A DNA stretch of 64,000 bases from Vicinamibacteria bacterium (GCA_023701125.1 JAMPXO010000003.1:32391-96390); one strand, 5' to 3'; shown: positions 22,906 to 40,266, counted from the first letter of the stretch. The notes: generated by a model not told the origin, from the sequence alone. A program made the numbers and translations.

Positions 22906-24128
22906 GTCGCCAGTCCTCCCGCGGTGTCACAATCCGGCATGCGTCCTGACGGGTCCTGGCACCCGGTCCTGCTGTGGATCACCGCCATTCTCCTGGCCCT
23001 CGGGTTCCACGTTCTGGCCCCGGTACTCGAAGTGCCTGACAGCGCGTCGTACCTCGCGCCGGCCCGTTCATGGGCGCGTGGCGACGGGCTGCTGGAGGCG
23101 GACGGATCGCCGATGTCCTACCGGATGCCGGCCTTCCCGCTGGTCGTCGGCATCGGGATCCGGCTCTCCGGCGATCCCGGGAACCTGGCCTCCGTCAGCC
23201 TGACGAACTTCGTCTGCCTGCTGCTCACCGCGCTGCTGACCCGACGCGCGATCCGGAGTCTCGGGGCGCCCGACCTCGCCGATCTCGGCGGGGCCGTGTG
23301 CCTCCTGTACCCGCCGCTGCTGACCTCCACGGCCCTCGTGCTGCAGGAGACCCTGCTCACGTTGTTCGTGACGCTGCTCTTCTCCTGCCTGGTGACGGCG
23401 ACGAAGGAGGACAGCTGGGGGCCAGCGGGCCTCGCCGGAGCCGCGCTCGGCCTCACGCTGCTGACCAAGCCCGTGATCGCTCCGACGGCGCCGCTGCTGC
23501 TGCTGCTGCTGGCTGCGACGCAGCGCAATGTTCGCAAGCGGGTCGCCGCGTTCTGCCTGCTGGCCGCCCTCGTGGTCGCGCCCTGGGCCATCCGCAACGC
23601 GGTGGTGCTGGGCCGCATCGAGCTGGCGCCGGGCAACACCGGGCACACGCTCCTGGGAGGCACCGTCTCCAACCAGATCGACGACTGGTACGGCTTCGAC
23701 GAGTACGAGAGCGCCGCTCGCGACTGGGCCGCGAGTGCTGCGGGCGCCGACACCCTCGACCGTCACCTGACCCGGGTCGCGCTCCACCGGATCGCGCAGG
23801 ACCCGGCCCGCTGGGCCCGGCTCTGCCTCGAGCGCGTGGGCCGCTTCATGCTTCCCTCGCGGGTCTTCTTCGTGCAGGCGGGGCTCTCGCGGACCGGCAG
23901 CTTCGGCCCCCTGTACGTGGTCGCCAGCCTGGTCAGCGTGGCGCTCTTCGCGCTCACGCTGTTCGTCGGCGGGCTGGCCTGGCGAAGGCGCGACCCCGCG
24001 CTGGCCGTCGGTCCGGTGCTCGTGTTGGGCCACGTGCTGGTCTACGCCGCCACCTACGTGAGCCCCCGCTACGCCCTGCCGATCACCCCGGCGCTGATCG
24101 CCTGCGCCGCCTGGGCCGCGCAAGTCGC

Positions 24129-25502
<1,374 letters not shown>

Positions 25503-25529
25503 GCGCGCTCCGGGGGCCAGGCCTGCGGG

Positions 25530-26741
25530 CTACTCGTAGCGCAGGGCCTCGGCCGGTTCCAGCGAGGCCGCAAGGCGCGCCGGGTAGGCGGCAGCGGCGA
25601 GAGCCAGACCATAGAGGCCGAGGACCGAGAGCGCAAGAGAGCGGGCGAAGACCTCCGGACGGATGCCGCTGACGATGTCCATCAGCGGTACCTGGACCAC
25701 GAGCGCGACGCCAGCCAGCACCGCGATCGTGACCAGCAGCGCCACCTCGGCCAGCACCTGGCGGAACACATCGGCCGCCGCGGCGCCGTGGGCGCGACGC
25801 AGACCGATCTCGCGGGTACGCTGGGTGACGTTCTGCCACAGCACGCCCGACAGGCCGAGCGCCACCATGACCAGCAGGAACAACCCGATCACCCCGCCCG
25901 TCGCCAGCGGCACCAGGCTGATCGAGTTACGCGTGGACCGCATCTGGGACAGCGGCTCGATCTGAAACGTGTAGCCCGGGCGCTCCCGCTCGAGCCGCCG
26001 GAGCAGGCGCTCCTCGAGCGCCACCCCGCTGTCCGGCGCCACCCGGACCAGCATCACCCGCGGCAGCCGCCGGATCGCGCCGCTCGCGGGCTCCGCTCGC
26101 CGGAAGACGTAGTGCTCCGGCCCCATCAGTTCGCCGTCCTGGCGGTAGTCGGCGAGCACGCCGACGATGCGCCGGGCCGGGGGCGGCGCCGAGTCGCGCC
26201 CCTCCTGCTCCGCGGTCGCATCGCGCCCGACCACGTCCGCGGTGTCGAACACGTGGCGGGCGAACGACTCCGTGACGACGATCGGCTCGGCCGCGGCGCC
26301 GTCGTCTTCGCGGGAGAACCAGCGGCCGGCAAGCAGTTTGATCCCCAGCGCTTCGGGCAGCCCGTCGTCCGCGCTCGCGATCCGGAACCTGACCCGCCGG
26401 CCGGCGATGCGTCCGGCGTCCATCCACTGCGACTGCTGGAACGGGGCGGGGTCGATGAATGCCGCGGCCTGCACCTCGGGAAACTCGCGCACGGCAGCGC
26501 GCAGGGCGATCAGGTCTGCGCTCGCCATCACCTCGTCGCGGCGTTCGCCGGTGGACGGGCGGATCTGCACGAACCAGGCGTTCTCCCACTCGAAGCCCAG
26601 CGGCCGTCGCCAGTTGTCCGCTGCGACGACGGAGCCGAGCGTGACGCCGAACAGGACCAGGAACGAGGCGAACAGCTCGGCCAGCAACAGCGCCGACTGG
26701 CGCTTGCGGTGCCACACGAGACGCAGCAGGTGGAGGATCAT
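25530..26741 (-). CDS. ABC transporter permease, FtsX/MacB type
   Basis: ATG 26741 (MILHLLRLVWHRKRQS) overlaps the upstream stop (ATGA). FtsX core QRTREIGLRRAHGA. Confidence 0.8.
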   Translation of the reverse strand: MILHLLRLVWHRKRQSALLLAELFASFLVLFGVTLGSVVAADNWRRPLGFEWENAWFVQIRPSTGERRDEVMASADLIALRAAVREFPEVQAAAFIDPAPFQQSQWMDAGRIAGRRVRFRIASADDGLPEALGIKLLAGRWFSREDDGAAAEPIVVTESFARHVFDTADVVGRDATAEQEGRDSAPPPARRIVGVLADYRQDGELMGPEHYVFRRAEPASGAIRRLPRVMLVRVAPDSGVALEERLLRRLERERPGYTFQIEPLSQMRSTRNSISLVPLATGGVIGLFLLVMVALGLSGVLWQNVTQRTREIGLRRAHGAAAADVFRQVLAEVALLVTIAVLAGVALVVQVPLMDIVSGIRPEVFARSLALSVLGLYGLALAAAAYPARLAASLEPAEALRYE

Positions 26742-27975
26742 CGCGCGGCTCCCTTCAGCGCCTGCACGGGATGGAGGCGGGCCAGGCGCCACGCCGGGTA
26801 GGCCCCCGACAGCACGCCGAAGAAGACGGCCAGGCCGAGGCCGAGGCCGAACGTGCGCAGGTTGAGGCCCAGTTGCGCGTAGGGGATCAGGCCGCTGTGA
26901 TTGATCGCGGCCAGCACCAGCGGCGCGGCCAGCAGGGCGAGAGCGCCACCCAGCAGCGTGAGCACGACGTTCTCCAGTACGAACTGGCCGACCAGGCTCA
27001 ACGCCGACGCGCCGAACGCCTTGCGTACGCCGATCTCCGGGGCTCGCTCCAGGATGCGGCTGACCGAGAGGTTGACCAGGTTGATCGTCGGCAGTCCCAG
27101 GAACAGCAGGGTCAGCAGGCCCAGAACGCCGACCAGCCGCTCGGGCCGGCTCTCCGCTTCGTCATGGGTGTCGAAGAGCATCCGCGAGGTGCTGGCGAAC
27201 AGGGTCTCGGGCAGCGCCAGGATGCGCTCGAACCCGGGCTCCGCCGACAGGTCGATCCGCTGCAGGCGCGATCGGAACTCGGCCTGGATCTGCGGGAAGG
27301 CCGCCGCGTCGCGGGCCAGCAGGAGCCCCCAGAAATCGCCGCCGAGTTCCTTGCGGTAGGCCTGGTCCTTGGCCGCGGAGTGCGGGACCCAGACGTCGGA
27401 GAACGGCAGGGCCCGCAGCATCGAGACGTCCGCGACGACGCCCATCACGCGGTAGTTCACCCCGTCCACCTCGACGTCGCGGCCCAGCGCTGGAGCGTCG
27501 CCGAAGATCCGCTCGCGTGTGGAACGGTTCAGCACCGCCACCCGCGAGCCCGCCTCGACCTCGGCCTCGGCGAACGGAGCGCCCTCCAGGAACTCGAACT
27601 GGAGGACCCGCCAGTACTCGGCGTCGGTGCGCTTCATGTAGAGCCGGTGCTTCTGGCCGCCCTGGTAGGAAAACGCCTCGCGCATCGTCGAGGTGATCGC
27701 CATCCGCTCGACCCCGGGCAGGTCGCGCGCGTAGCGGTCGAGCAGGCCGAAGCCGGCCGGCGAAGTCGACTGCGCGTTCTTGCCCTCCATCCGGACGTTG
27801 AAGATCAGCAGCGTGCGATCGTGGTGGACCTCCGGCGGGAACGCCCCGAACACGTTGTCGAGCAGCGCCCCGGCCACGATCAGGACGAGCAGGGTCAGCG
27901 CGATGCCGAACAGGCTGATGGCCGTGAACACCTTGCGGCGCTGGAGCACGGCCAGGGCCAGGCGCAGGTGGCTCT

Positions 27976-27982
<7 letters not shown>
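26738..27982 (-). CDS. ABC transporter permease, FtsX/MacB type
   Basis: MLKSHLRLALAVLQRRKVFTAISLFGIAL N-terminus and FtsX core ERAPEIGVRKAFGA. Confidence 0.85.
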
Positions 27983-28644
<662 letters not shown>

Positions 28645-28657
28645 CCCTGCTCCTCCG

Positions 28658-29902
28658 TCAGCGCAGCCGCAACCGGCGCGCGGTCCCGAAGGCGCTCGTG
28701 TCGGAGACGAGCACCTCCTCCCCCTCCTGCAGTCCTTCGAGCACCTCGATGTGCTCGTAGCTCGCGACGCCCAGCCGCACGCTGCGGCGGCGGGCTTCCC
28801 CGCCTTCGACCACGAACACGTCCTGCACGCCGAGCCCGGTCAGGCCCGGACCGCGCGCGACCCGCAGCACGCCGGCTCGCTGCTCGGTGAGCACCTCGAC
28901 GTCGACCCGCAGATTCGGCCGCAGCGCCGCGTCGCTGGCGTCCTCCAGGGCCACCCGGAAGCTGACCGCCCCGCCCTGCACCGAGGGCTCGACCGCGGCC
29001 ACCGTGCCGGGCAGCGCCCGCTCGCCGAGCCGCACGCGGACGGGCATCCCGGGCCGGAGGACGTTCGCGTGCACGTCCGACAACGTGGCCTGCACGCGGA
29101 ACCGGGTCAGGTCGGCGACCCGGGCCAGCACGTCGCCCGGCCGCACCGTGGAGCCCTCGTCGGTGATCACGAACGTCAGCACCCCCGCCCGCTCGGCGCG
29201 GGCGGTCGCCCGCTGCAGCGTCCGCCACGCCTCGGCCCGCTCCTGGCGCAGGGTGCCGCCCTCGAGCGCGATCTGGCGCAGCCGGGCCGCGGTGCTGGCC
29301 GCCGCGTTCTTCTGCTCGAACTCGAGCTGCGCCACCTCGATCCGGGCCTGGGCGGTCGCCAGCTCGCTCTGCTGCAGCACTTCTTCCGCGATCAGGCCCT
29401 CGGCGTGCAGCTTGCGGTTGCGGGAGAGCTGGGATTCCAGGCTGGCGAGCTGCAGGCCGCGCACGTTGCGCCGGGCCTCGAGGTCGGACTGGGTGCGCTC
29501 GAGGGCCAGTCGCTCGCGCTCCTCGTCGGTCTCGCGCAGCGAAATCTGCTGGTCGAGCCGCTCCACCGCCAGCCGCGCCGGGGCCACGTCCAGTTCCAGG
29601 ATCGGCTCGCCCGCCGCGAGGGTCGCGCCCGGGCGCTTCAGGACGCGGAGCACACGCGCCTCGACAGGGCTGGTCAGGGCCTGCTCCGACTCGGGCAGCA
29701 CCGTCCCGCTGGCGGAGAGCGAGGCCGCGAGATCGCCACGCTCCACCCGCGCGAGCCGGACGCGGTCGCGGGCGATACTCGGTCCGAACCAGTACGGAAA
29801 CGCGAACCAGGCGGTCAGGCTGGCCACGACCACAGCCGCTGCGAGGCGGATGCGGCGGCGGCGCTGGTCAGCGACGAATTCGGCGTCGAGGGGGCGGTCC
29901 AT
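28658..29902 (-). CDS. HlyD-family periplasmic adaptor (membrane fusion protein)
   Basis: N-terminal TM (IRLAAAVVVASLTAWFAF), a coiled-coil hairpin region, and beta-barrel/lipoyl-like segments. ATG 29902 is preferred over 29965 because a sigma-54 promoter lies between them. Confidence 0.8.
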   Translation of the reverse strand: MDRPLDAEFVADQRRRRIRLAAAVVVASLTAWFAFPYWFGPSIARDRVRLARVERGDLAASLSASGTVLPESEQALTSPVEARVLRVLKRPGATLAAGEPILELDVAPARLAVERLDQQISLRETDEERERLALERTQSDLEARRNVRGLQLASLESQLSRNRKLHAEGLIAEEVLQQSELATAQARIEVAQLEFEQKNAAASTAARLRQIALEGGTLRQERAEAWRTLQRATARAERAGVLTFVITDEGSTVRPGDVLARVADLTRFRVQATLSDVHANVLRPGMPVRVRLGERALPGTVAAVEPSVQGGAVSFRVALEDASDAALRPNLRVDVEVLTEQRAGVLRVARGPGLTGLGVQDVFVVEGGEARRRSVRLGVASYEHIEVLEGLQEGEEVLVSDTSAFGTARRLRLR

Positions 29903-29923
29903 GTCGGTTCCGAGCCGACGTAG

Positions 29924-29939
29924 AGCAACCGCGATGCCA
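29924..29939 (-). promoter_or_regulatory. sigma-54 (-24/-12) promoter
   Basis: The minus strand reads CTGGCATCGCGGTTGCT. This is TGGCAT-N5-TTGCT with exact GG-N10-GC spacing, about 22-37 nt upstream of ATG 29902. Confidence 0.6.
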
Positions 29940-29997
29940 GCCAGAAACCCCTGTTTCAGGGGCACTTGTGGCTGATTCCGTGCGCCTTCGGACGAAC

Positions 29998-30029: not shown

Positions 30030-30773
30030 CTAGCGGGAGCGCTCGATCAAGCGCCTCGAGATCCAGATCGTGCGATGGGTCGCGGTCCAGAAGGTGCCGA
30101 CCGCGATCGCGCCGAGCACGAACAGCGACGGCGTCCCGCTCTGCCAGCCGAAGCGCTCGCACAGCGCCGTGTCGGACAGGCAGACGAGACAGGTGAGCAC
30201 GAGTCGCTCCGCGCGCTGCATCAGGCCCTCCTTGCACAGCACGCCGAGCGACTCGCCGCGGGCCCGCGCGTAGCTGACCAGCAGCGAGCCGGACAGCGCC
30301 GCGGCGGCCACCAGCGCACCGTGCTCGCGGTCGCGCAGGAAGTAGACGAAGCCGAGCAGGCAGAACACCTCGACGAAGCGGTCCAGCGTGCTGTCGATGA
30401 ACTTGCCGTAGTCCGAGTCGAGCTTGCGCGCGCGCGCGATGCGGCCGTCGAGGATGTCGCAAACGCCGCCGGCCGCGATCGCCCAGCCGCCGGCCTCGAG
30501 GTGACCGAGCCCGATGCAGACGCCCGACACCGCGCCGAAGAACAGGCCGGCGAAGTTGAACACGTCGGGCGTCGCCCCCATCGCGAGGAAGAGCCGCTCG
30601 ACCGGCCCGATCACCCACATGAACCAGTGAACCAGGAAGTTGCCCGCGCCGCCCGCGAACTGGGTGTTCTTCTTCGTGGCGTCGGCGTCGCGACCTGCGC
30701 CGGTCAGGGCGAACACGGCCATCGAGGCGAACGCGGTGCCGAAGATGGCGAGAAGGATCTGCAAGCTGCTCAT
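30030..30773 (-). CDS. CDP-alcohol phosphatidyltransferase family protein
   Basis: DILDGRIARARKLDSDYGKFIDSTLD matches the DGx2ARx8Gx3Dx3D signature. Multi-TM, 247 aa. Confidence 0.85.
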   Translation of the reverse strand: MSSLQILLAIFGTAFASMAVFALTGAGRDADATKKNTQFAGGAGNFLVHWFMWVIGPVERLFLAMGATPDVFNFAGLFFGAVSGVCIGLGHLEAGGWAIAAGGVCDILDGRIARARKLDSDYGKFIDSTLDRFVEVFCLLGFVYFLRDREHGALVAAAALSGSLLVSYARARGESLGVLCKEGLMQRAERLVLTCLVCLSDTALCERFGWQSGTPSLFVLGAIAVGTFWTATHRTIWISRRLIERSR

Positions 30774-31709
30774 CTACCGTTTCCCCCTGGAGTCCTTGGT
30801 GGCGAAGTAGCGCACGACCCGCGGCCACAGGAACACGAGCGGCCAGCGGCGCTCGCGCGGGGTCAGCTCGATCCGCTGCCCCGTGTGGCGCTCCGCCTTG
30901 CGCACGATGTAATCGAGCCAGTCGTCGAAGGTGACGACGTACTTGGCCCAGCGCAGCGTCGCGCGCAGGCGCGAGCGCTGGAAGAAGATCCACAGCCGGG
31001 CCCGCTCGGCCGAGCCGACCCGCCGCACGAGCGCGAAGCGGCCCGGCGCGACCTCGCGCAGTGCCCCCCGCGCCGCCGCCTCGGCCAGCACCGGGGCGAA
31101 CGCGGGCACCTGCTGCACCCGCTGCGCGTTCCACAGTGCCTCGGCGCGCCCGGCGGGCTCGGGCCGGATCTCGTGCCGCATCGAGACCTGCAGCGCACGA
31201 TGGCAGAACTGCTCGGCGTCGAAGCTCTCCGGCAGCCACGGCCGCGCCCAGTCCAGGGTCACCCGCCGTGCCTCGGCCAGCGCCGTGTCCGCCGCGGTCC
31301 GGGCCTGCTCGTCGGCGGCATAGACGATCGACGCGGGCTGGAACAGCCGCCCCGCGCAGAAGTGGTCGTGGCGGCGTGGCCCGGTCTCGCGCACGAGCGT
31401 CGCCAACTGGATCACCGCGCACTTCGCCGTGCGCTCGCCCGCGCGGACCCGGACCTGGTTGGGCGCCAGTACCGCGTTGATCGAAGCCGCCAGCCCGGGC
31501 GAGCGCCGGTAGGCCCCGGCTCGAACCAGCGCCTCGTAGAACGGGGCGTAGTCGGAGACCGCGACGAAGAAGTCGTAGCCGCTGTGGGGATCCGTCGGCG
31601 TGCCCGTGCGACGCGAGCCGAAGAACACGATCGCCCGCACGGCCTCCCCGCCGACCCGGGCGACCGCCGCGGCGAGGTCGCGCGCGTCCGGGGCCACCTC
31701 GCCCACCAT
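30774..31709 (-). CDS. Tam41/Mmp37-like nucleotidyltransferase (putative lipid-phosphate cytidylyltransferase)
   Basis: ATG 31709 in ORF 30774..32582. FFGSRRTG...GYDFFVAV NTase motif. AKCAVIQLATLV...FCAGRLFQP resembles Tam41 KYGVVS..TLL...YLAGRLQKP. 311 aa. Confidence 0.6.
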   Translation of the reverse strand: MVGEVAPDARDLAAAVARVGGEAVRAIVFFGSRRTGTPTDPHSGYDFFVAVSDYAPFYEALVRAGAYRRSPGLAASINAVLAPNQVRVRAGERTAKCAVIQLATLVRETGPRRHDHFCAGRLFQPASIVYAADEQARTAADTALAEARRVTLDWARPWLPESFDAEQFCHRALQVSMRHEIRPEPAGRAEALWNAQRVQQVPAFAPVLAEAAARGALREVAPGRFALVRRVGSAERARLWIFFQRSRLRATLRWAKYVVTFDDWLDYIVRKAERHTGQRIELTPRERRWPLVFLWPRVVRYFATKDSRGKR

Positions 31710-31714
31710 CGCGC

Positions 31715-32548
31715 TCAGGCCGGAAGCGCGGGCTGACCCGCCGCCGCGCCGCCCTCGGGCTCGCGGCCGCGCATCTGCGCCAGGTGCGCCCGCATGCGGG
31801 CCTCGATCTGCTCCACGAACGCCGGCAGCACCGCGGGGTCCGTCGGCGCCTCGAGCACCGCCGCGACCTCGGTCCGGCCGCGCAGGTGGTGGACGTTGGT
31901 GACGAAGTCGACGAAGGTGCGCGCCTTCCAGAAGCCGTCGGTGACGACCAGCGTGACCGGGGCGCCGGGCTGCTCGCGCAGGATCGCCAGCAACCCGCCC
32001 GTGCGGAAGCCGCCGAGCTCGCCGTTCTTCGTCCGGTGCCCCTCGGGGAACAGCGCGAAGGTGCGGGCCTGGGTCGCGGCCAGCCGCGTCAGCAGGTCGA
32101 CCGCGCCGCGCGCGTCGCGCTTCGGGTCGATCCTGGGCCCGTCGATCAGCCAGATGCCGCCGCCGACCAGCGGGACGTACCAGTGCCCGTAGCGCTGGCG
32201 GGCGATGAAAGCCGGGATCGCCGGGCTCGCCATCAGGCTCAGCGCGGGGATGTCGAGCAGCGACTGGTGGTTCATCACGACCAACCCGCGGCCGCGGGTG
32301 TCGACCTGGCCGACGCGGACGAAGCGGGCGCCGCCCAGCTTGAAGAAGAAGAAGATCCCGGTGCACGTCATGCGGAAGTACCAGAGCGCGATCCGCGACC
32401 GCCAGCCGGGCAGCAGCGCGCAGAGCGGGATCGCGAGCAGGTACATGATCGGCCCGCACGGGAACGCCATCCAGCTCAGCACGAGCAGGAACGAGACCGC
32501 GCTGCGGACCTGACGCAGGCGTTCGACGAACGACACGCCAGCCGTCAC
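31715..32548 (-). CDS. PlsC-type (lysophospholipid/1-acyl-G3P-like) acyltransferase, membrane anchored
   Basis: GTG 32548 overlaps the upstream stop (GTGA). HX4D motif NHQSLLD, plus FPEGHRT. N-terminal TM segments. Confidence 0.8.
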   Translation of the reverse strand: MTAGVSFVERLRQVRSAVSFLLVLSWMAFPCGPIMYLLAIPLCALLPGWRSRIALWYFRMTCTGIFFFFKLGGARFVRVGQVDTRGRGLVVMNHQSLLDIPALSLMASPAIPAFIARQRYGHWYVPLVGGGIWLIDGPRIDPKRDARGAVDLLTRLAATQARTFALFPEGHRTKNGELGGFRTGGLLAILREQPGAPVTLVVTDGFWKARTFVDFVTNVHHLRGRTEVAAVLEAPTDPAVLPAFVEQIEARMRAHLAQMRGREPEGGAAAGQPALPA

Positions 32549-33438
32549 GGGACCAGCACCTCCAGCGCGGCCGGCTCGACATGCACGTCGAGGGTGTCTG
32601 CGTGGGCGCGGTTCCACTCGCCGTCCGTCTCGTAGGTCGGCGCCGTCTCGAAGCGCAGCCTGAGCCGCGCGGGCTGGCCCATCTTCACGTCGGGCGCCTG
32701 CTCGTGGGTCCCGCGCAGCAGCTTGCCCATCAGCGAGAGCCGACGACCGAGGCCCATGTTGGCGAAGGCGACCGAGTCCAGCCGGCCGTCGCCGAGGTCG
32801 GCCCCGGGCGCAATCTTGAAGGCGCCGCCGAACACCCGCGCGTTGGCGACGATCAGCATCAGCAGGTCGTGGGCCTGCTCGGGCTGGTCGTCCGCGGTGA
32901 TCCACACCCGGAAGCCCGGGAAGTTCCGCAACTGGCGCAGCGCGCAGTACAGGTAGAGCAGGTCACCCTGCAGCCGGGTCACCGTCCACGAGTCCTCGAG
33001 CACGGCGACATCGAAGCCGAACCCGAGCACGTTCAGGAAGCGCTTGCCTTCGACGACGCCGACGTCCACGCGTCGCGTGCGTCCCGCGGCCAGGATGTGC
33101 AGGCACTGCCGCAGGTCCTTGCCCGGGATGCCCAGCGTCTTGACGAAATCGCAGCCCGTGCCGCCGGCGATGAAACCGAGCCGGGTCGGCTTGCCCGCCT
33201 CGAGCACGCCGTTCGCCGCATTGCCCCAGGTGCCGTCGCCGCCGACCGCGACGATCGTCCCGAAGCCCCGCGACGCCGCTTCGCGCGCCAGGCGACGCTC
33301 GTCGCCCGGCGCCTCGGTCAGGCCGTGGTCGACCTCGAAGCCCTGCGCGCGCAGCCACGAGGTGACCGGCTCGATGAGCGTGGCGCCGCGCCCCTTGCCG
33401 GAGCGCGGGTTGAACACGACGTAGTAGGACGCGGCCAC
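32545..33438 (-). CDS. DAGK_cat / YegS / LCB5-family lipid kinase
   Basis: YVVFNPRSGKGRG and IVAVGGDGTWGNAANG motifs. 297 aa, GTG start. Confidence 0.85.
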   Translation of the reverse strand: MAASYYVVFNPRSGKGRGATLIEPVTSWLRAQGFEVDHGLTEAPGDERRLAREAASRGFGTIVAVGGDGTWGNAANGVLEAGKPTRLGFIAGGTGCDFVKTLGIPGKDLRQCLHILAAGRTRRVDVGVVEGKRFLNVLGFGFDVAVLEDSWTVTRLQGDLLYLYCALRQLRNFPGFRVWITADDQPEQAHDLLMLIVANARVFGGAFKIAPGADLGDGRLDSVAFANMGLGRRLSLMGKLLRGTHEQAPDVKMGQPARLRLRFETAPTYETDGEWNRAHADTLDVHVEPAALEVLVP

Positions 33439-33466
33439 GCGAACGTCCGTCGACGCGCCCGCCCGC

Positions 33467-34135
33467 TCAGGCCGTCTGCAGCGTGAGCAGCGGGTCGAAG
33501 GTCTGCTTCCCGTTCCGCATCCAGATCTCGCGGAACGGCATCGTCGCGACCTCGCCGATCGACAGCGCCCGGTTGAAGGGATGGTCGTGCAGGACCAGCG
33601 CCCCGGTCTCTTCTTCGTGCTCGCTCTGCTCGCCCTGCATCACGATGTTGGCCTGGTAGGCCCCGGAGTCGTCCTTCATGAAGGACTGGTAGAGCTGGTC
33701 CACGGGCTGCCAGGAGTGCTCGCCGATCGACAGGTCCGCGAGCGGCGTGCCGTCGAGGGTGACCTTCGCCGCGAGCGCGCGCTCGGCGCGCACCCACTCG
33801 ATGCCGACGTCCTCCATCCAGTGCGGCAGGTGCCAGCGCTCGATCGCGTGCTCGCGCGCGGCCCGGGTCGTCGTGCCGACCATGTAGGGGTACAGCGCGA
33901 ACTTGGGCAGCCGCTCGCCGGCCTTGACGATCGGCGCGACCATCACCGACATCACGACCTCGCCGTAGGGACCCACCGAGCTCTGGTCGAAATCGAAGCA
34001 GGTCATCGCGAAGATCGACGTGCCGTGGTGCAACTCGGCCAGTTGCAGGTGATCGGGCACGATGCGCCGCGCGTTCTCGGTCGGAAACTCGAAGAAACCG
34101 GCGATGACGTCGGCGTAGCCGTAGACGGTCTTCAA
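33467..34135 (-). CDS. acetoacetate-decarboxylase-fold (ADC-like) protein, function unknown
   Basis: TTG 34135 overlaps the SPT stop (TTGA). ARRIVPDHLQL...FAMTCFDFDQSSVGPYGEVVMSVMV resembles the ADC-family N-terminal beta pattern. The ADC catalytic KK motif is not evident. Confidence 0.45.
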   Translation of the reverse strand: MKTVYGYADVIAGFFEFPTENARRIVPDHLQLAELHHGTSIFAMTCFDFDQSSVGPYGEVVMSVMVAPIVKAGERLPKFALYPYMVGTTTRAAREHAIERWHLPHWMEDVGIEWVRAERALAAKVTLDGTPLADLSIGEHSWQPVDQLYQSFMKDDSGAYQANIVMQGEQSEHEEETGALVLHDHPFNRALSIGEVATMPFREIWMRNGKQTFDPLLTLQTA

Positions 34136-35415
34136 CGGATGATGCCCTCCTCGCGGAGCACGCCCGCGATGACGTGAACGGCCGTCTCGAGATCCTCCTC
34201 GCTGTGCGCCGCCGAGACCGAGACGCGAAGCCGCGACTTGTGCTTCGGCACGGCCGGGTAGGTCACGGGCTGCAGGAACAGGCCACGGTCCTGGACCTTC
34301 TCGGCGACCGCGAACACGCGAGCGTCGTTGTTGACCATCACCGGCATCACCTGCGAGGTCGACTTGCCGATGTCGACGCCTTCCTCCGCGAAGCGGCGGC
34401 GCAGGTAGGCGACGTTCGACCACAGCTTGGTGCGGAGCTGCGGCTCGGACTGGGCGATGCGCAGGCCGGCCAGCAGCCCGGCCGCGACGGGCGGCGCCAG
34501 GTTGCAGGAGAAGAAGCGCGAGCGGCCGAAGGCGTTGACGTAGTCGATCAGGTCGCGGCTGCCGCACACGAAGCCGCCCTGCCCGCCCAGGCTCTTGGAG
34601 AACGTGCCGAGGTGGAAGTCGATCTCGTTGTCGAGCCCGAAGTGCTCCGCCACGCCGCGGCCGTTGGGGCCGAACAGGAACGTGGAGTGCGCCTCGTCGA
34701 TCAGGATGCGAGCGCCGTGGCGCTTGGCCACCTCGACGATCTCGGGCAGCACGCAGACGTCGCCGTCCATCGAGTAGACGCCCTCGACCACGACCAGCTT
34801 CTTGCCCTTGGCCTTCTGCAGCTTGCGCTCGAGGTCGAGCGGGTTGTTGTGGCGGAACCAGAGCGTGTTCGACTTGGCCAGGATCGCGCCGTCGACGATC
34901 GACGCGTGCGAGTACTGGTCGAGGATGATGTAGTCGCCCGAGCGCATCAGCGCGGCGATGAAGCCCACGTTCGCCGAGTAGCCGGTCGGGAACAGGATCG
35001 CGGCTTCCTTGTCCTTGAACTCGGCCATCTCGCGGGCCAGGTCGAGGTGGACCTGCAGGGTCCCGGACAGCATCGGGGAGCCCGAGGCGCCCAGGCCGTA
35101 GAGGTTGGTGGCATCGATCGCCGCCTGCTTGACCTCGGGCCGGTAGGAGATGCCCAGGTAGTTGTAGGAGGCGAGGTTGATCAGGTCCTGGATGCGGCCG
35201 GTCTTGCGGTTGCGGACCCTGACCCGGGACTCCGGGGCGGTCTGCAGCGGCTCGGAGTAGAGGTAGTAGCCGTTCGGCAACGCCTCGCGATACCACTCGT
35301 TGAACGGACCGAGCAGGTTCAGCGGGTCGTCGCCCGCGCCGTAATAGAAATTGCTGTAGTCGTACTCGGCGAACGTCGACGACTTCCCGGGGTCCTTGCC
35401 GTGGACCGGATCCAT
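34132..35415 (-). CDS. spt: alpha-oxoamine synthase, serine-palmitoyltransferase-like
   Basis: ATG 35415 preceded by AAGGAG. LASYNYLGISY (SPT-type SYNYLG), DEAHS, PLP lysine in GTFSKSLGG. 427 aa. Confidence 0.7.
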   Translation of the reverse strand: MDPVHGKDPGKSSTFAEYDYSNFYYGAGDDPLNLLGPFNEWYREALPNGYYLYSEPLQTAPESRVRVRNRKTGRIQDLINLASYNYLGISYRPEVKQAAIDATNLYGLGASGSPMLSGTLQVHLDLAREMAEFKDKEAAILFPTGYSANVGFIAALMRSGDYIILDQYSHASIVDGAILAKSNTLWFRHNNPLDLERKLQKAKGKKLVVVEGVYSMDGDVCVLPEIVEVAKRHGARILIDEAHSTFLFGPNGRGVAEHFGLDNEIDFHLGTFSKSLGGQGGFVCGSRDLIDYVNAFGRSRFFSCNLAPPVAAGLLAGLRIAQSEPQLRTKLWSNVAYLRRRFAEEGVDIGKSTSQVMPVMVNNDARVFAVAEKVQDRGLFLQPVTYPAVPKHKSRLRVSVSAAHSEEDLETAVHVIAGVLREEGIIR

Positions 35416-35462
35416 AGGGCGGTCTCCTTGTGCGCCACGCACCACCGGCACGCGGCAGCGGG

Positions 35463-35471
35463 ATTCTACCA
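35463..35471 (-). promoter_or_regulatory. possible extended -10 (TGGTAGAAT) in front of spt
   Basis: The minus strand reads ...GGCTGGTAGAATCCC... about 47 nt upstream of the spt ATG, inside the 130-nt SDR-spt gap. No good -35 element. Confidence 0.3.
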
Positions 35472-35545
35472 GCCCCGGCCAGCGGCCGGAAGCGCCCACT
35501 GCGGCAAATCGCCGGACGGCTTGGACTTGCGGCGCAGGGAATGCG

Positions 35546-36343
35546 TCAGCGCGGTCGGAACAACTCCCCCGCCAGGCGCCGGGTCAGGCTGCGTGGCACC
35601 AGCGACTGGGCCGCCACGGTGAGCCGGTTCTGCAGGCCGGGGATCACGACCAGGGTCCCCCGCTCCAGGCCGGCGAGCGAGGCGGCCACCACGTCCTCGG
35701 GAGGACTGGCCGGGGTCTTGTCGAACAGCACCTTGTCGGTGCCGGCGACCTGCTGGAACTCCGTCTTGATGTTCCCGGGACAGAGCGCCTGGACGCGGAC
35801 GCCGGTCCCCTCCAGCTCCACTGCCAGCGACTCGGTGAACGAGAGCAGAAACGACTTGGAGGCGGCGTAGACGGCGAAGAACGGCACCGGCTGGAACGCG
35901 GACATCGACACCACGTTGACCACCCGGCCGCGACCGCGGGCGGCCATCGCCGGCACCAGCCGCGCGCACAACTCCACGGTGGTCCGCACGTTCAGGTCGA
36001 TCACCTCCAGCGACGCTTCGACGGGACGTTCGACGAAACGGCCCGTGTCGCCGCGCCCCGCGTTGTTGACGAGCAGGTCGATCTCCCGACCCCGCTTGCC
36101 CAACTCGGCCTCCAGCCGCGCGGGGCCTTCGGGTCGGGCGAGGTCCAGGGTGATGACGTCCACCTGGTCTGCCCCGCCGAGTTCCTCCTGCAGAGCCCTC
36201 AGCCGTTCGACCCGCCGGGCCACCACCACGACCCGCTCGCCGCGGCTGACCAGGGCGCGCGCGAAGGCGGCGCCGATCCCGCTCGACGCGCCCGTGACCA
36301 GCGCCCAAGGCCCGTCCGCCGACTTGTTTCGCCCTCGCGCCAT
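35546..36343 (-). CDS. classical short-chain dehydrogenase/reductase (3-ketosphinganine-reductase-like by context)
   Basis: ATG 36343 in ORF 35546..37183. Motifs TGASSGIG, NNAG and YAASK. 265 aa. Confidence 0.8.
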   Translation of the reverse strand: MARGRNKSADGPWALVTGASSGIGAAFARALVSRGERVVVVARRVERLRALQEELGGADQVDVITLDLARPEGPARLEAELGKRGREIDLLVNNAGRGDTGRFVERPVEASLEVIDLNVRTTVELCARLVPAMAARGRGRVVNVVSMSAFQPVPFFAVYAASKSFLLSFTESLAVELEGTGVRVQALCPGNIKTEFQQVAGTDKVLFDKTPASPPEDVVAASLAGLERGTLVVIPGLQNRLTVAAQSLVPRSLTRRLAGELFRPR

Positions 36344-36517
36344 GCCGCGTCCCTCTTCGGCGAGCGCCCACCCGGAACCGCGGGTCCGTCGCGCTCGTCG
36401 CGGGGCGACAATAGCAGACGGTCCCGCGGGCTTTAGGCTATGCTCCGCCTTCCGCCGCGGGCCGTCGGCCCGGGTACCAAGGGCGCCCCGAAACCGAAGA
36501 GACCTCGAAGACCCGCA

Positions 36518-37624
36518 ATGGCCAACCTCGCCGCCGCCAACGTGATGCACCGCAAGACCCGGACCCTCGTCTCGGTGCTGGCGGTGGCGATGGAAGTCGC
36601 GATGGTGATGGTGCTGGTCGGGCTGGCCAGCGGCACCCTGGGCGAGATCGCCGACCGCCTCCAGAACGTGGGGGCCGACGTGCTGTTCCAGCCGCCGGAC
36701 GCCTCGCTGCTGCTGGGCGCCACGGCCGCCGTGATGCCGGTGAAGTACATCGACATCATGAAGACCGTCCCGGGCGTGGTCGAGGCCACCCCCGTGCTCA
36801 ACTGGCACGTCTCCAAGGTCAAGGGCGAGACCCGGGCGATCAACCTGTGGGCGATCGACTACCCCTCCTTCACCCGCATCTCGGGCGGCTTCGACCTGCT
36901 CGAGGGCCGCGGCCTTGAGCAGCCCCACGACCTCGTGATCGACACCGTGCTGGCCAACGCCAGCGGCCTGCAGGTCGGCGAGGCGATGCCGATGATGAAC
37001 CGCGAGTTCCGCGTCGCCGGCATCTGCCGCGCGGGCGCGGGCGGCCGGCTGTACGCCCGCATCGAGGACGTGCAGGAGGCGATCGGGGAGCCGGGCAAGG
37101 CCTCGTTCTTCCTGGTCAAGGGCACCGACTCGAAGCAGGCCGACGCGCTGGCGCAGGCGCTCCAGGAGAAGTTCAAGGGCCACAAGATCACGCCCGTCGC
37201 CCAGGTTTCGAGGGCGATGCAGGAGAACGCGATCGGCCTCCAGCAGTTCAAGGAAGCGCTGACCGGGATGGCCGTCATCATCTCGTTCATGGTGGTACTG
37301 CTGGCCATGTACACCACGATCATCGAGCGCACCCGCGAGATCGGCATCCTGCGCGCGATCGGCGCGACCCAGGGCAAGGTCGTGCAGTACGTCGTGGCCG
37401 AGAGTTTCCTGATCTGCCTGGCCGGCGTGCTGCTCGGCAACGCACTGGCGGTCAGTGCGCAGTGGCTGCTACCGAAGATTTTCCCGATGCTGAACATCGC
37501 CTTGAGCCGCGAGTGGGCGCTGATCGCCGCCGCTCTCGGCCTCGTCGGCGGGCTGCTCGGCGCGATCTACCCTGCGATCAAGGCCGCCCGCCTCGACCCC
37601 GTGCAAGCACTCAATTTCGAGTAA
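36518..37624 (+). CDS. orphan FtsX/MacB-type ABC permease (no adjacent ATPase)
   Basis: ATG 36518 in ORF 36440..37624. N-terminal TM, periplasmic domain, and FtsX core ERTREIGILRAIGAT. Confidence 0.8.
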   Translation: MANLAAANVMHRKTRTLVSVLAVAMEVAMVMVLVGLASGTLGEIADRLQNVGADVLFQPPDASLLLGATAAVMPVKYIDIMKTVPGVVEATPVLNWHVSKVKGETRAINLWAIDYPSFTRISGGFDLLEGRGLEQPHDLVIDTVLANASGLQVGEAMPMMNREFRVAGICRAGAGGRLYARIEDVQEAIGEPGKASFFLVKGTDSKQADALAQALQEKFKGHKITPVAQVSRAMQENAIGLQQFKEALTGMAVIISFMVVLLAMYTTIIERTREIGILRAIGATQGKVVQYVVAESFLICLAGVLLGNALAVSAQWLLPKIFPMLNIALSREWALIAAALGLVGGLLGAIYPAIKAARLDPVQALNFE

Positions 37625-37654
37625 CTCCGAAAAGGACTTGGCCCCTTTCAGCTC

Positions 37655-38269
37655 ATGAAACTTCTCAATACCCTGATCGAGAAGGTCTCCGACCACCCGG
37701 TGCTGTTCATCTTCTTCCGGGCGATCCTGGAGAACGATTTCAAGGCGATCCGTGCGGTGATCCGGCGCGAGTTGAACCTCGGCCCCGGCCAGCGGACCCT
37801 GGACCTCGGCTGCGGGCCCGGCGCCTTCTCGGACCTGTTCGAGAAGCACGACTACGTCGGCGCCGACCTCAACAAGCGCTACATCGACTACGCCCGCGAG
37901 CACCGCCGCGGCACGTTCATCGCCTCTGACGCGCGCAAGGTGGACCTGCCGGACGCCCGCTTCGACCAGGTGCTGATCTTCGGCCTGCTCCACCACCTCT
38001 CGGACGAGGACACGCGGGCCGTGTTGTCGGAGGCGCGGCGCATGGTCGTCCCCGGCGGCGTGATCCTGGCGATCGAGGACATCCCGGCCCAGCATCGGCT
38101 CAACCTGATCGGCCACCTGCTGCACGCGATCGAGAACGGCGAGCACATCCGCCCGACCGCGGACTACAAGGGGCTGTACGCCGAGGCCGGCACGATCGAA
38201 CTCGAAGAAGAACTGCGCAGTGGCGTCTGCGACTACTACGTCGCGCGGATTCGCACGCCCAGGGTGTGA
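37655..38269 (+). CDS. class I SAM-dependent methyltransferase
   Basis: SAM motif I LDLGCGPGAF and post-I DLNKRYIDYA. 204 aa. Its stop overlaps the next start (GTGA). Confidence 0.8.
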   Translation: MKLLNTLIEKVSDHPVLFIFFRAILENDFKAIRAVIRRELNLGPGQRTLDLGCGPGAFSDLFEKHDYVGADLNKRYIDYAREHRRGTFIASDARKVDLPDARFDQVLIFGLLHHLSDEDTRAVLSEARRMVVPGGVILAIEDIPAQHRLNLIGHLLHAIENGEHIRPTADYKGLYAEAGTIELEEELRSGVCDYYVARIRTPRV

Positions 38270-40266
38270 GCGGCCGGCGCCTCGCCGGCACGCTGGCCTG
38301 GGCGCTCGCCGCCGCCGTGCTGGCGGTCGCCGGCCTCGCTGCGGGGTTGCGGCAGGCGCGCCCGCTGGTGCTCGACCTGGGGCCCAACGACGCGGCGCAA
38401 CTTGCCGGCTTCCGCGAGGACTGGGAGCGCGAGGGATCGGTCGCGTTCCGCTGGACGACGCTGCGCTCGGAGGTGCGCTTCCCCTTCGCGCTCGCCGAGC
38501 CCGGGGGCCGCGTCGTACTCCGCTATCGGCGCCACTTCGACGACCCCGCTCGGGTGCGCATCGTCTCCGCGGGCGCCACGGTCGTTCAGTTCGAGGCCAG
38601 GGCCGATCGCAAGAGCCCCTACCTCGAGCTCGAGGCTCCGCTCGGCGCGACGCGCGGGCCGCTCACGCTGGTGTTCGAGTCCCACGTCACCAACGAGCGC
38701 CCGCTGGGCATCGCTCTCGACTGGGTGCGGGTCGAAGGCCGAGGCGGCTACCAGACGACGGGAAGCCTGTCCGTCGCGGTCGCCCTGCTGGCGGCAGGCA
38801 CCGTGTTGCTCGTCGCGGCCGCCGGGGCTCCGGCCCTCCCGGCCGCGGCGGCCGGATTGCTGGTTGCGGCGGCGATCGGACTGGGCGGCTGGTGGGACCC
38901 GATGGCACTGGACCGGATCGTCCAGGGCGGCCTGGCGCCGTGGCTGCTCACGGGTGCGGCTGCGGTCCTGCTGCTCCGGGCGCGGCCGTCCTCGGCCTGG
39001 CTGCGTGTCGAAGTCGCGCACCGGCCCGCGCTGCTCGCGCTGGCCCTCGTGGCGCTGGCTGTGCGGCTCGTGCTGGTGCTCCACCCCCGCTTCTACTACC
39101 CGGACGTGCGCACCCATGCGCTCTTCGCGGGACAACTCGCCCGCCACGGGCTCGAGCGCTTCTTGCAGGGCTTCACCGAGAACCAGTTCCGCTACTCGCT
39201 GGGCATCCAGCTCGAGGGCGATCACTGGTACGCGTTCCCCTACCCGCCGCTGTTCTACGTCTTCGCCCAGCCCCTGATCGGATTGTTCCGCCTCGCGCCC
39301 GAGCTCGCCGTCTCGGCGCTGCCGGCGATGGTCAACGCGCTCGAGGTGCTGCTCGTCTACGCGCTCGCCCGTCGCCTGGCGGCCGTCGCGCCGCTGCGCG
39401 CCGCGGCGCTCGTGGTGGTGCTACCGATCTTCCTGGCCCGGGCGTCGCTGGCGCTCTTCCCCGCCCTGGTCGGCCATGCCCTCGATACGTTGCTGCTGGT
39501 CTGCCTGCTCGACCTGTTCCAGGCCGCGCGCCCTCGCGTCCGCAGCGGGGTCGTGTCGGGCCTGCTGCTGGCGACGGCCTTGCTGGCGTACACACAGGGC
39601 GTCCTGAACTTCGGCCTGCTGCTGCCGCTGGTGCTGGCCTGGGATTTTTTCGCGGACCGCACGCCGACGGGCCGCGATCGGCAACGGGCTCTGCTGACCG
39701 CGGGCGTCCTCGGTGTGACGCTGGCAGCCGGGCTCTTCTACGCGCGCTACGTGCCGGTGTTCGTGGACATGCAGCGGGGCATCCCCCAGCCCGAGGAGCG
39801 CATCTGGCTGGAGTTGCAGGAGCGGCGGGCGCTGCAGGGGGACGACGATCAGCCCGAGGAGCCCAACGACCCCTACGCCGCCCCGACGTTCGAGGCCACC
39901 CGGGGGCTGGCCAAGGCGGGCTCGCGCTTGTGGATTTTCTGGGGCCCGTTCGCGCTCCTGCTACCGGTCGGGGTGGGACTACTGGCCGCGGGCGAAGCCG
40001 CGGCCAGCCGGCGCTTCCTGATCGCGTGGGCCAGCCTCTACATCGTGCTGAACTTCGCATCCGGCAGCCTGCCCGGCCCGAACCTCTTCCGCCACAGCAA
40101 GGACGTCGAGGTCGTCGCGCCGCTCTGCGCGCTCTCTCTCTCTCTCGCCGGCTCCGGGCCCCGCTCGCGCCTGGCGTGGCGCGCGGTATGGATGGCCTTC
40201 GTCGTCTACGCAGCCTGGCGAGTCGTCGAGATCTACGGGCGCATCACACCCGCTCCGTTGCCCTAG
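38266..40266 (+). CDS. large polytopic membrane protein, GT-C/PMT_2-like, with N-terminal extracytoplasmic domain
   Basis: 666 aa. An N-terminal TM is followed by a ~150-aa soluble domain and then more than 10 hydrophobic segments. HPRFYYPDVRTHA loop motif. Confidence 0.55.
   Translation: MSGRRLAGTLAWALAAAVLAVAGLAAGLRQARPLVLDLGPNDAAQLAGFREDWEREGSVAFRWTTLRSEVRFPFALAEPGGRVVLRYRRHFDDPARVRIVSAGATVVQFEARADRKSPYLELEAPLGATRGPLTLVFESHVTNERPLGIALDWVRVEGRGGYQTTGSLSVAVALLAAGTVLLVAAAGAPALPAAAAGLLVAAAIGLGGWWDPMALDRIVQGGLAPWLLTGAAAVLLLRARPSSAWLRVEVAHRPALLALALVALAVRLVLVLHPRFYYPDVRTHALFAGQLARHGLERFLQGFTENQFRYSLGIQLEGDHWYAFPYPPLFYVFAQPLIGLFRLAPELAVSALPAMVNALEVLLVYALARRLAAVAPLRAAALVVVLPIFLARASLALFPALVGHALDTLLLVCLLDLFQAARPRVRSGVVSGLLLATALLAYTQGVLNFGLLLPLVLAWDFFADRTPTGRDRQRALLTAGVLGVTLAAGLFYARYVPVFVDMQRGIPQPEERIWLELQERRALQGDDDQPEEPNDPYAAPTFEATRGLAKAGSRLWIFWGPFALLLPVGVGLLAAGEAAASRRFLIAWASLYIVLNFASGSLPGPNLFRHSKDVEVVAPLCALSLSLAGSGPRSRLAWRAVWMAFVVYAAWRVVEIYGRITPAPLP

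Follow-up and report, generated by a model that had tools for sequence, protein, structure and literature searches.

Vicinamibacteria are abundant soil Acidobacteriota of which few have been cultured, and next to nothing is known of the chemistry of their envelope. This report deals with a locus in a 64,000-nucleotide stretch of a Vicinamibacteria genome (GCA_023701125.1, JAMPXO010000003.1:32391-96390; G+C content ~72%), the whole of which is referred to as the window. At positions 36344 to 40266 it carries a divergent intergenic region and three plus-strand genes that encode a MacB/FtsX-type permease (FtsX in the following), a class I S-adenosylmethionine (SAM)-dependent methyltransferase and a membrane protein with a predicted GT-C fold (the GT-C protein; Table 1). 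With moderate confidence, we read these genes as one transcription unit in this genome but as a mosaic, in which each of the three envelope genes can be lost independently of the others. They occupy a variable slot, and their leading component would be a predicted GT-C glycosyltransferase for optional surface decoration.

Real genes were told from the many spurious open reading frames (ORFs) by third-position GC, which is 0.91-0.94 in the three plus-strand ORFs. The FtsX stop codon TAA (37622-37624) is separated by 30 nt from the ATG of the methyltransferase gene at 37655, and the junction of the last two genes is -4 nt, with the GTG start codon of the GT-C gene (38266-38268) overlapping the methyltransferase TGA (38267-38269) as GTGA. 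A promoter and terminator scan of the window and a motif comparison with relatives found no internal promoter or terminator between the three genes. Since most FtsX-bearing loci do not possess a separate promoter before the methyltransferase gene, the three genes probably form a single transcription unit here. On the 5' side, the starts of the short-chain dehydrogenase/reductase (SDR) gene at 36343 and of FtsX at 36518 delimit the intergenic region. The N-terminus MANLAAAN is kept in all FtsX orthologues examined, which supports the start at 36518 and hence a length of 174 bp. An earlier sequence-only reading of this DNA had described a three-gene operon that diverges from a lipid operon across exactly this region, with a GTGA overlap of its last two genes, and this layout is borne out. 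On the 3' side, the TAG of the GT-C gene (40264-40266) shares the letters CTAG with the stop codon of the convergent parB, which is accompanied by the likewise convergent genes parA, a bifunctional-nuclease gene, miaB and recN.

Table 1. Features of the locus and of the neighbouring lipid operon in the window
Feature	Position	Strand	Basis or remark
Divergent intergenic region SDR/FtsX	36344..36517	.	174 bp; read directly
MacB/FtsX-type ABC permease, 368 aa	36518..37624	+	Pfam FtsX and MacB_PCD; alternative ATG at 36440
Class I SAM-dependent methyltransferase, 204 aa	37655..38269	+	Methyltransf_25/11 matches
GT-C-fold membrane protein, 666 aa, unannotated family	38266..40266	+	predicted structure
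CBM35/CBM6-like beta-sandwich, residues 34-158, predicted periplasmic	38365..38739	+	follows N-terminal anchor, residues 3-29
YYPD motif, residues 277-280, candidate catalytic base D280	39094..39105	+	invariance and position
Extended -10-like box TGCTATTGT, facing the lipid operon	36408..36416	-	minus-strand reading of gacaatagcag; conserved motif
Candidate -10 hexamers TAGGCT (36434-36439) and TATGCT (36439-36444)	36434..36444	+	equivalent place in relatives
SDR	35546..36343	-	Pfam/NCBIfam
Alpha-oxoamine synthase (Spt)	34132..35499	-	closest to serine palmitoyltransferase and BioF, below every curated cut-off
Acetoacetate-decarboxylase-like (ADC-like) protein	in lipid operon	-	
YegS-type lipid kinase	in lipid operon	-	
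PlsC-type acyltransferase	in lipid operon	-	
Unknown 338-aa protein	in lipid operon	-	
CDP-alcohol phosphatidyltransferase	30030..30773	-	closest to PIP synthases

The GT-C protein

The GT-C protein is 100% identical to NDJ94_01360 of a Vicinamibacteria metagenome-assembled genome and has no match in Pfam, NCBIfam or the PDB sequences. An AlphaFold model that was built on 42 homologues (pLDDT 89.3, pTM 0.90) consists of the N-terminal transmembrane (TM) helix, the beta-sandwich and about 14 further helices, and it agrees well with the sequence-only reading, in which an N-terminal extracytoplasmic domain of ~150 residues, more than 10 TM segments and a YYPD loop had been recognized. The model displays the features that define a GT-C fold: it passes the membrane many times, contains the conserved TM core and has juxtamembrane helices in its first periplasmic loop.

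An exhaustive profile search yielded 595 cluster representatives at E<=1e-3. Seven residues (G39, F49, P73, D152, D280, P325 and Y442) are invariant across members with 23-34% identity to the protein of the window, and four more (P274, Y278, R554 and Y492) are near-invariant when the broad family is considered. D280, which is invariant in 42 sequences of this identity range, lies between the TM helix 250-272 and the helix 279-309, at the start of the latter, and the positive-inside rule (RR 4-5, RARPSS 239-244, RRLAAV 370-375) puts it on the periplasmic side. In GT-C_A enzymes, the first juxtamembrane helix (JM1) carries the catalytic aspartate at its tip (PMC12041525). The position of D280 therefore fits a catalytic role, and this residue, at the tip of the corresponding helix, is a candidate for the catalytic base.

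The protein had been proposed to be ArnT/PMT-like, but by hidden Markov model (HMM) comparison it does not belong to the PMT_2/PMT/ArnT families (GT39, GT83), as it gave no match to PF13231 or PF02366. Within the family, PMT_2 was matched by 1 of 42 distant members (E 1.7e-4), and a precomputed PF13231 match exists for 2 of 120 close members. Kinship with PMT_2 was also rejected by hhalign, which gave a probability of 0.4% for the family profile against the PMT_2 protein of the window. This latter protein, encoded at 22564-24165 (+) between a histidine kinase gene (21592-22905) and a sigma-54 regulator gene, is a true PMT_2 GT-C protein (PF13231, E 8.5e-10) and unrelated in sequence to the 666-aa protein. 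Membership in the STT3/PglB family (GT66) was rejected as well, on the grounds that there is no Pfam, NCBIfam or PDB-sequence match and that TM helices form the C-terminal end with no soluble domain behind them, whereas a C-terminal periplasmic domain with WWDYG characterizes that family. HMM matches to PimE or GT87 were not obtained. Judged from its predicted structure, the protein thus represents a new, previously undescribed family within the known GT-C fold, with an N-terminal extension composed of an anchor, a carbohydrate-binding-module (CBM)-like domain and three TM helices. A literature search returned nothing on this family or on sphingolipids of Vicinamibacteria.

Variation of the slot among relatives

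Two samples of related loci, designated by L numbers, were compared. The first was anchored on the GT-C gene and comprises 22 genome loci, all from Vicinamibacteria or Acidobacteriota. The second is free of this bias and comprises 80 metagenome loci that were retrieved with the ADC-like marker of the lipid operon; 17 of them span the region from the SDR gene to parB and 3 more pass the SDR gene only. All relatives recovered by this second scan have an identity of at least 63% and fall within the class.

Of the 17 lipid-anchored loci that reach parB, 7 carry the GT-C gene and 10 do not, and the same numbers were obtained for the methyltransferase gene. FtsX occurs in 15 of the 20 lipid-anchored loci with room beyond the SDR gene, leaving 5 without it, and 8 of 19 GT-C-anchored loci lack it. 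In the 34 loci that include both flanks, the slot between lipid operon and parB contains nine different gene combinations: radical-SAM gene, FtsX, methyltransferase and GT-C (9 loci), radical-SAM gene and FtsX (7), GT-C only (5), radical-SAM gene, methyltransferase and GT-C (4), methyltransferase and GT-C (4), FtsX and methyltransferase (2), and in one locus each the three genes of the window (the window itself, to which L112 adds a second case), a KAS-III gene with radical-SAM gene, methyltransferase and GT-C, and radical-SAM gene, FtsX and methyltransferase. A neighbour-joining tree of Spt, SDR and ParA implies at least three independent losses of GT-C and at least four of FtsX. The methyltransferase gene accompanies the GT-C gene in 19 of the 24 GT-C-bearing loci.

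An obligate partnership of the three genes with the lipid operon is contradicted by these data, and with nine combinations in the slot the three genes do not form a conserved unit. The position of the GT-C gene itself is persistent. Of the 34 loci that extend from SDR to ParB, 24 have its orthologue next to the lipid operon, and even a deep clade (L026, L029, L094, L096 and L100) carries the GT-C gene alone and directly divergent from the SDR gene, with a GT-C protein that is 34-36% identical to that of the window and an Spt that is ~81% identical. The only GT-C-bearing locus seen away from the lipid operon is L019, where the methyltransferase-GT-C pair follows hrcA-grpE-dnaK-dnaJ-prmA-rsmE and no lipid operon lies within 9 kb. 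In the GT-C-anchored loci, however, synteny extends over the whole 20 kb, including the lipid operon, the slot, parBA, miaB, recN and tol-pal, so that adjacency does not provide specific evidence for a functional link. As to the two findings that the sequence-only reading had named as fatal to a lipid link, the neighbourhood is variably conserved rather than lost, and clear orthology of the methyltransferase or the GT-C protein to a non-lipid system was not found.

Further genes were observed in or next to the slot. A radical-SAM gene (~350 aa, motif CNLSCTYCNEYD) heads the lipid operon on the strand of the latter in most relatives (for example L003 6295-7356 and L016 7060-8115); the window, L032, L033 and L112 do not have it there, and no copy exists elsewhere in the 64-kb window. 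In L001, a KAS-III-like gene occurs besides the radical-SAM gene at the head of the lipid operon. A fatty-acid hydroxylase gene (PF04116) is found in the slot of L017 (939-1679) and L081, and in L017 it is situated between FtsX and the methyltransferase gene, followed by a gene for an RCC1-repeat protein. A reading of the locus as defence island was rejected, as PADLOC gave generic overlaps only (methyltransferase core with mad2, FtsX TM region with a LolE_TM fusion, none for GT-C). No defence-system, RNA or mobile-element explanation was found for the locus, and no terminator, Rfam family or flanking repeat accounts for the presence or absence of the GT-C gene.

Loss and divergence of the GT-C gene in the closest relatives

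Two close relatives illustrate the behaviour of the GT-C gene. In L032, the flanks on either side run collinear to those of the window, with a nucleotide identity of ~83%, and exactly the window segment 38290-40266 is missing; only 6 nt separate the methyltransferase stop from the parB stop, with no GT-C remnant. L112 possesses the arrangement of the window, and its lipid-operon and parBA proteins are 94-99% identical to those of the window, whereas its GT-C allele is 60% identical. At the nucleotide level, identity amounts to 90-98% in the flanks, drops to 60-76% across exactly the GT-C gene and rebounds at ~40.4 kb. Nei-Gojobori estimates of nonsynonymous (dN) and synonymous (dS) divergence between window and L112 gave the highest ratio (omega) of the neighbourhood for the GT-C gene (dN 0.329, dS 0.851, omega 0.39), as compared with the methyltransferase gene (dN 0.071, dS 0.477, omega 0.15) and eight flanking genes (dN 0.005-0.030, dS 0.14-0.35, omega 0.03-0.14). 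The divergence is spread over the whole GT-C protein, of which the catalytic loop and the loop 602-612 are the most conserved parts. Both alleles look functional, as every family-invariant residue is kept in each, and the near-invariant residues named above are all retained in the L112 allele.

The repeated loss of the GT-C gene and its high omega could also be expected if the gene were under relaxed selection and on the way to being lost, without an important function in this genome. We think that this is very improbable, because the ORF of 666 codons is intact with a third-position GC of 0.91, omega is well below 1, the conservation of the invariant residues and of the two loops holds in both alleles, and hundreds of intact family members exist.

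Paralogues of the GT-C family

Distant members of the family (23-34% identity) are found in the same genomes, with several paralogues per genome. In L024 and L031, paralogues are surrounded by genes for GT4 glycosyltransferases, methyltransferases, an acetyltransferase and AlgX/GDSL proteins, and a GT2 gene stands beside one paralogue only (L031); a carbamoyltransferase gene also belongs to the paralogue neighbours. A paralogue in L030 is accompanied by AlgX genes and by a PMT_2/TMEM260 protein, and the contexts in L027 and L028 are uninformative. Altogether, the paralogue contexts point to glycan chemistry. The methyltransferases that are associated with paralogues share only the SAM core with the window methyltransferase, so that the recurring pairing of methyltransferase and GT-C protein holds at the level of enzyme class and does not indicate orthology. 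In L023 (8628-11890), L025 (221-4391) and a P0282 contig, a further, conserved operon was observed that encodes a methyltransferase (290 aa), a protein resembling FAD amine-oxidases and phytoene desaturases (~468 aa), a GT-C-like protein and a cNMP-binding/FHA protein.

It has to be considered at this point that the GT-C protein modifies an exopolysaccharide, a lipopolysaccharide or a protein that is unrelated to the adjacent lipid, in the manner of serotype-converting Gtr-type GT-C enzymes or of protein O-mannosyltransferases, so that its location would be accidental and phage or predator pressure would drive loss and divergence. The presence/absence polymorphism and the confinement of the divergence island to the GT-C gene agree with this explanation, as do the CBM35-like domain of the protein, the GT4, GT2, AlgX, acetyltransferase and carbamoyltransferase genes that adjoin paralogues, and the different context of the GT-C gene in L019. 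However, a donor synthase and a flippase are not encoded nearby, unlike in classical three-component systems (PMC11127046), there are no polysaccharide genes near the GT-C orthologue in the window, and it is the orthologous group, and not the paralogues, that stands beside the lipid operon in the 24 loci. On balance, we regard this explanation as possible but doubtful.

The methyltransferase and the permease

The sequence-only reading had placed the methyltransferase in the size range of phospholipid N-methyltransferases and had suggested a comparison with PmtA-type and UbiE-type families. Neither family is supported, as only the generic SAM-binding core is recognized, and no signal of a lipid N-methyltransferase was obtained from Pfam, NCBIfam, PDB or Foldseek. 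The protein is a generic class I enzyme with matches to Methyltransf_25/11, and no PEMT/PmtA model was among its 10 Pfam matches or among the 25 listed of its 26 NCBIfam matches. Every NCBIfam equivalog match remained far below its cut-off, including those for UbiE/MenG (TIGR01934, 31.2 bits versus a cut-off of 158; NF001241, 36.9 versus 327), and the match to PF01209 is partial (23.3 bits, 118 of 233 profile positions). Matches to PDB sequences cover the SAM core only and belong to many substrate classes, with plant phosphoethanolamine N-methyltransferases at 38 bits. For the predicted model (pLDDT 83.5), Foldseek returned natural-product C- and O-methyltransferases as the nearest folds, namely CouO, NovO, AtmM, RebM and TleD (TM 0.65-0.70). 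A large protein search recovered only close orthologues with generic names. The methyltransferase orthologues (631 homologues in total) are 68-91% identical, as compared with ~46% for the GT-C protein.

FtsX matches the Pfam families FtsX (PF02687, 60.2 bits) and MacB_PCD (PF12704, 47.8 bits), both above their cut-offs, and hence combines the four-TM FtsX domain with the MacB periplasmic core domain as type VII permeases of the MacB/FtsX class do. Its orthologues are 67-91% identical where present, and it is 24-35% identical to the three other permeases of the window. The permease had been described as an orphan, and indeed no ATPase is fused or adjacent to it in the window, nor is one adjacent in the loci of relatives. 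This has to be qualified in so far as the window does encode ABC ATPases at 27976-28644 and 10480-11217, both of which have MacB-type permease genes of their own. In L112, FtsX (L112 8047-8847) is decayed by an in-frame deletion of 99 residues in the periplasmic domain and a C-terminal frameshift. The deletion falls exactly between imperfect 17-nt direct repeats (window copies at 36810-36826 and 37107-37123), and the apparent decay may also be due to an assembly error of the contig.

Altogether, the window contains four MacB-type permeases and two ATPases. The ATPase at 10480-11217 pairs with a permease at 9330-10475 (minus strand), and the other one belongs to a MacAB-like set at 24129-29965 (-) that comprises an HlyD adaptor (28658-29965), the ATPase (27976-28644), two permeases (26738-27982 and 25530-26792) and a sigma-54 response regulator. 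This set begins 64 nt after the CDP-alcohol transferase gene, directly downstream of the lipid operon, and is shared with L032, L033 and L112 only, the closest relatives of the window, and not with more distant ones. It is a possible source of an ATPase for the lone permease at 36518.

The intergenic region

Two AT-rich words had been noticed in the shared intergenic region, gacaatagcag at 36407-36417 and ctttaggctatgct at 36431-36444, and these turned out to be more than chance, as both coincide with promoter-like elements that are conserved in relatives. On the minus strand, the first word reads as an extended -10-like box, for which the relatives have TGCTATGAT or TGCTATCAT. The motif cTG(C/T)TAT(C/G/T)(A/G)T, usually in the context TCTGCTATGATCCCG, is present in the window and in L002, L003, L007, L008, L014, L015, L016, L018 and L022. 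It can be written as ATAGCAGA, which gives, when read on the minus strand, an extended -10 (cTGCTATGAT or cTGCTATCAT, and TGCTATTGT in the window) that faces the lipid operon and is a putative promoter element of the latter.

The second word occupies the place at which relatives have the -10 of a plus-strand promoter motif. This motif, TTGACG/TTGCGY-N17/18-TAnnnT, precedes the first plus-strand gene in 19 of 22 loci (the window and 21 relatives), regardless of whether this is FtsX, the methyltransferase or the GT-C gene, at a background of 0.019 per 260 nt. In the window, the -35 is degenerate (CAGACG, 36415-36420) and a strict sigma-70 scan found no promoter, so that the promoter reading of the window rests on the comparison with relatives. 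If the candidate -10 is used, transcription would start past the ATG at 36440, which favours the start codon at 36518. The intergenic region is almost identical in L112; since the radical-SAM gene separates the SDR gene from the plus-strand genes in most other relatives, the 174-bp shared form is peculiar to the sub-lineage of the window. Back-to-back promoters alone are no proof of co-regulation. As a more general observation, promoters of Vicinamibacteria appear here as TTGACG-N17-TAnnnT and an extended -10 TGnTATnAT (window 36408-36444, L002-L022). The pattern matches only 85 times in 1.16 Mb on both strands and could serve as promoter model for the class.

The adjacent lipid operon

The lipid operon (30030-36343, minus strand) consists of seven genes. 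The 338-aa protein contains a Pol-beta nucleotidyltransferase motif, and 2 of its 11 orthologues weakly match Tam41_Mmp37 (E 0.0017), a family of soluble CDP-diacylglycerol synthases. As a lead from these similarities, the kinase, the Tam41-like protein and the CDP-alcohol transferase would give a putative self-contained route, in which a lipid phosphate is turned into a CDP-lipid and the latter receives a head group of the inositol-phosphate type. A CrtC-like two-lipocalin protein with domains of the hydroxyneurosporene-synthase family, encoded at the left end of the window (269-1084, +), is unrelated to the locus described here.

The sequence-only reading had proposed that the divergent genes modify or export the lipid made next door. 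In an optional form, this implies a slot for strain-variable tailoring and export, in which the GT-C protein would glycosylate the head group on the periplasmic face, as PimE does, the methyltransferase would modify the head group or the donor, and FtsX would extract and export the lipid with an ATPase encoded in trans. Part of this proposal has gained support, as lipid enzymes occur among the slot genes (the fatty-acid hydroxylase of L017 and L081, the KAS-III of L001 and the radical-SAM gene) and as the back-to-back promoter motifs are conserved. The deep clade keeps the GT-C orthologue directly divergent from the SDR gene despite the low identity of the protein, the PIP-synthase-like CDP-alcohol transferase and the weakly Tam41-like protein let a head group with a sugar or inositol appear plausible, three quarters of the lipid-anchored loci with room for FtsX have it together with the lipid operon, and the HlyD/ATPase/two-permease set directly follows the lipid operon in the sub-lineage of the window. 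However, an obligate partnership of the three genes cannot be maintained, for the lipid operon occurs without GT-C or without the methyltransferase in 10 of 17 loci each, and in L019 the pair exists with no lipid operon nearby. Unrelated housekeeping genes are equally syntenic, and the adjacency may be simply inherited. Moreover, the GT-C paralogues reside in polysaccharide-type and not in lipid clusters, the CBM-bearing GT-C enzymes Emb and AftD are known to act on polysaccharides, and PmtA, PimE and GT87 were not among the HMM matches. We therefore consider this proposal rather unlikely.

A more specific version would see the slot as a tailoring cassette for a sphingolipid-like, possibly inositol-phosphate-bearing lipid, of which the GT-C protein glycosylates the head group in a PimE-like manner, which the methyltransferase and, in other strains, the hydroxylase, KAS-III or radical-SAM enzyme would vary further, and which FtsX would help to move outward. 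By analogy this can be envisaged, and we judge it unlikely. If it were true, gain, loss and divergence of slot genes would translate into strain-level diversity of a surface glycolipid in a very abundant soil group.

Interpretation and significance

We return to the favoured reading of the slot as a mosaic that is led by an enzyme of optional surface decoration. In the predicted layout of the GT-C protein, a membrane anchor with its N-terminus inside comes first and a CBM35-like domain for sugar binding follows in the periplasm, from which three additional TM helices lead to the GT-C core. At the outer face of the inner membrane, the enzyme would use a polyprenyl-phosphate-sugar as donor, with Asp280 of the YYPD motif as presumed base, and would transfer the sugar to a carbohydrate-bearing envelope acceptor that may be held with help of the CBM-like domain. 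The frequent loss of the GT-C gene and its much faster evolution than that of its neighbours fit an optional, strain-variable surface decoration. The methyltransferase is a generic small-molecule enzyme that usually travels with the GT-C gene and whose substrate, on the cytoplasmic side, may be the donor or the acceptor, and the permease would need an ATPase encoded elsewhere and would have no functional tie to either of the other proteins. It is possible that the adjacent lipid is the acceptor of the GT-C protein, and no evidence requires it.

Several points weigh against this reading. The persistence of the GT-C gene beside the lipid operon in the deep clade could mean that the lipid link is real, and the raised dS of the gene could reflect import of an allele by recombination and not fast evolution in place. 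The equivalence of D280 with the catalytic aspartate is based on topology, GT-C-fold proteins are not all transferases, with PIGU as an example (PMC12041525), and glycosyltransferase activity, polyprenyl-phosphate sugar donor and acceptor are all deduced from the predicted fold only. Furthermore, a Pfam search of 43 ORFs found no polyprenyl-phosphate-sugar synthase (GT2/PRTase) and no flippase (GtrA, SMR, MATE) in the 64-kb window.

The significance of the locus lies first in the definition of a sizeable unannotated GT-C family with an unusual N-terminal CBM35-like domain, one orthologous group of which is a hotspot of loss and divergence between near-identical genomes, as is typical of surface structures under diversifying pressure. 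It also corrects a tempting guilt by association, as the three genes are no constant companions of the lipid operon and any functional link must therefore be optional. If the lipid link is real, it would point to strain-variable glycolipids; otherwise, the family still offers envelope glycobiology a new target.

Comparison with known systems

Compared with the permeases MacB, LolCE and FtsX, the first gene product has the same FtsX four-helix and MacB periplasmic core domains, but it possesses neither a fused or adjacent ATPase nor an adjacent adaptor, is dispensable in many relatives and scores far below the curated cut-offs for MacB, LolC/E, DevC and FtsX. Likewise, the methyltransferase shares the Rossmann fold and the SAM-binding motifs with CouO/NovO, RebM/AtmM and UbiE/MenG but does not belong specifically to any of these families.

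For the GT-C protein, there is no sequence-level membership among STT3/PglB/AglB, ArnT, PMT, AftA/AftD and ALG9/12 (no match to PMT_2, PMT or STT3), and the placement of its accessory domain is different. The putative sugar-binding domain is N-terminal, between the anchor helix and the three extra TM helices, whereas the accessory domain is C-terminal in Emb, AftD and STT3, and the MIR domain of PMT is located within a loop. PimE (GT87), the mycobacterial mannosyltransferase that depends on polyprenyl-phosphomannose and acts on phosphatidylinositol mannosides, is a GT-C_A enzyme with the catalytic aspartate at the tip of JM1, which decorates an inositol glycolipid on the periplasmic face (PMC12041525), and this activity is what a lipid link would require of the 666-aa protein. 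However, no sequence relation between the two was detected, PimE does not contain a CBM-like domain, and in the present case a lipid acceptor is purely hypothetical and the adjacent lipid itself only a predicted one.

The pattern of presence, absence and divergence of the GT-C gene is matched by the three-component periplasmic glycosylation systems of Gtr type (GtrA/GtrB/Gtr*, and ORF12/14/15 of Citrobacter with GT136), in which a GT-C enzyme adds an optional, strain-variable decoration after the assembly of an envelope glycan (PMC11127046). In those systems, the GT-C enzyme has a polyprenyl-phosphate-sugar synthase and a flippase as partners, whereas here its partners are a methyltransferase and a MacB-type permease.

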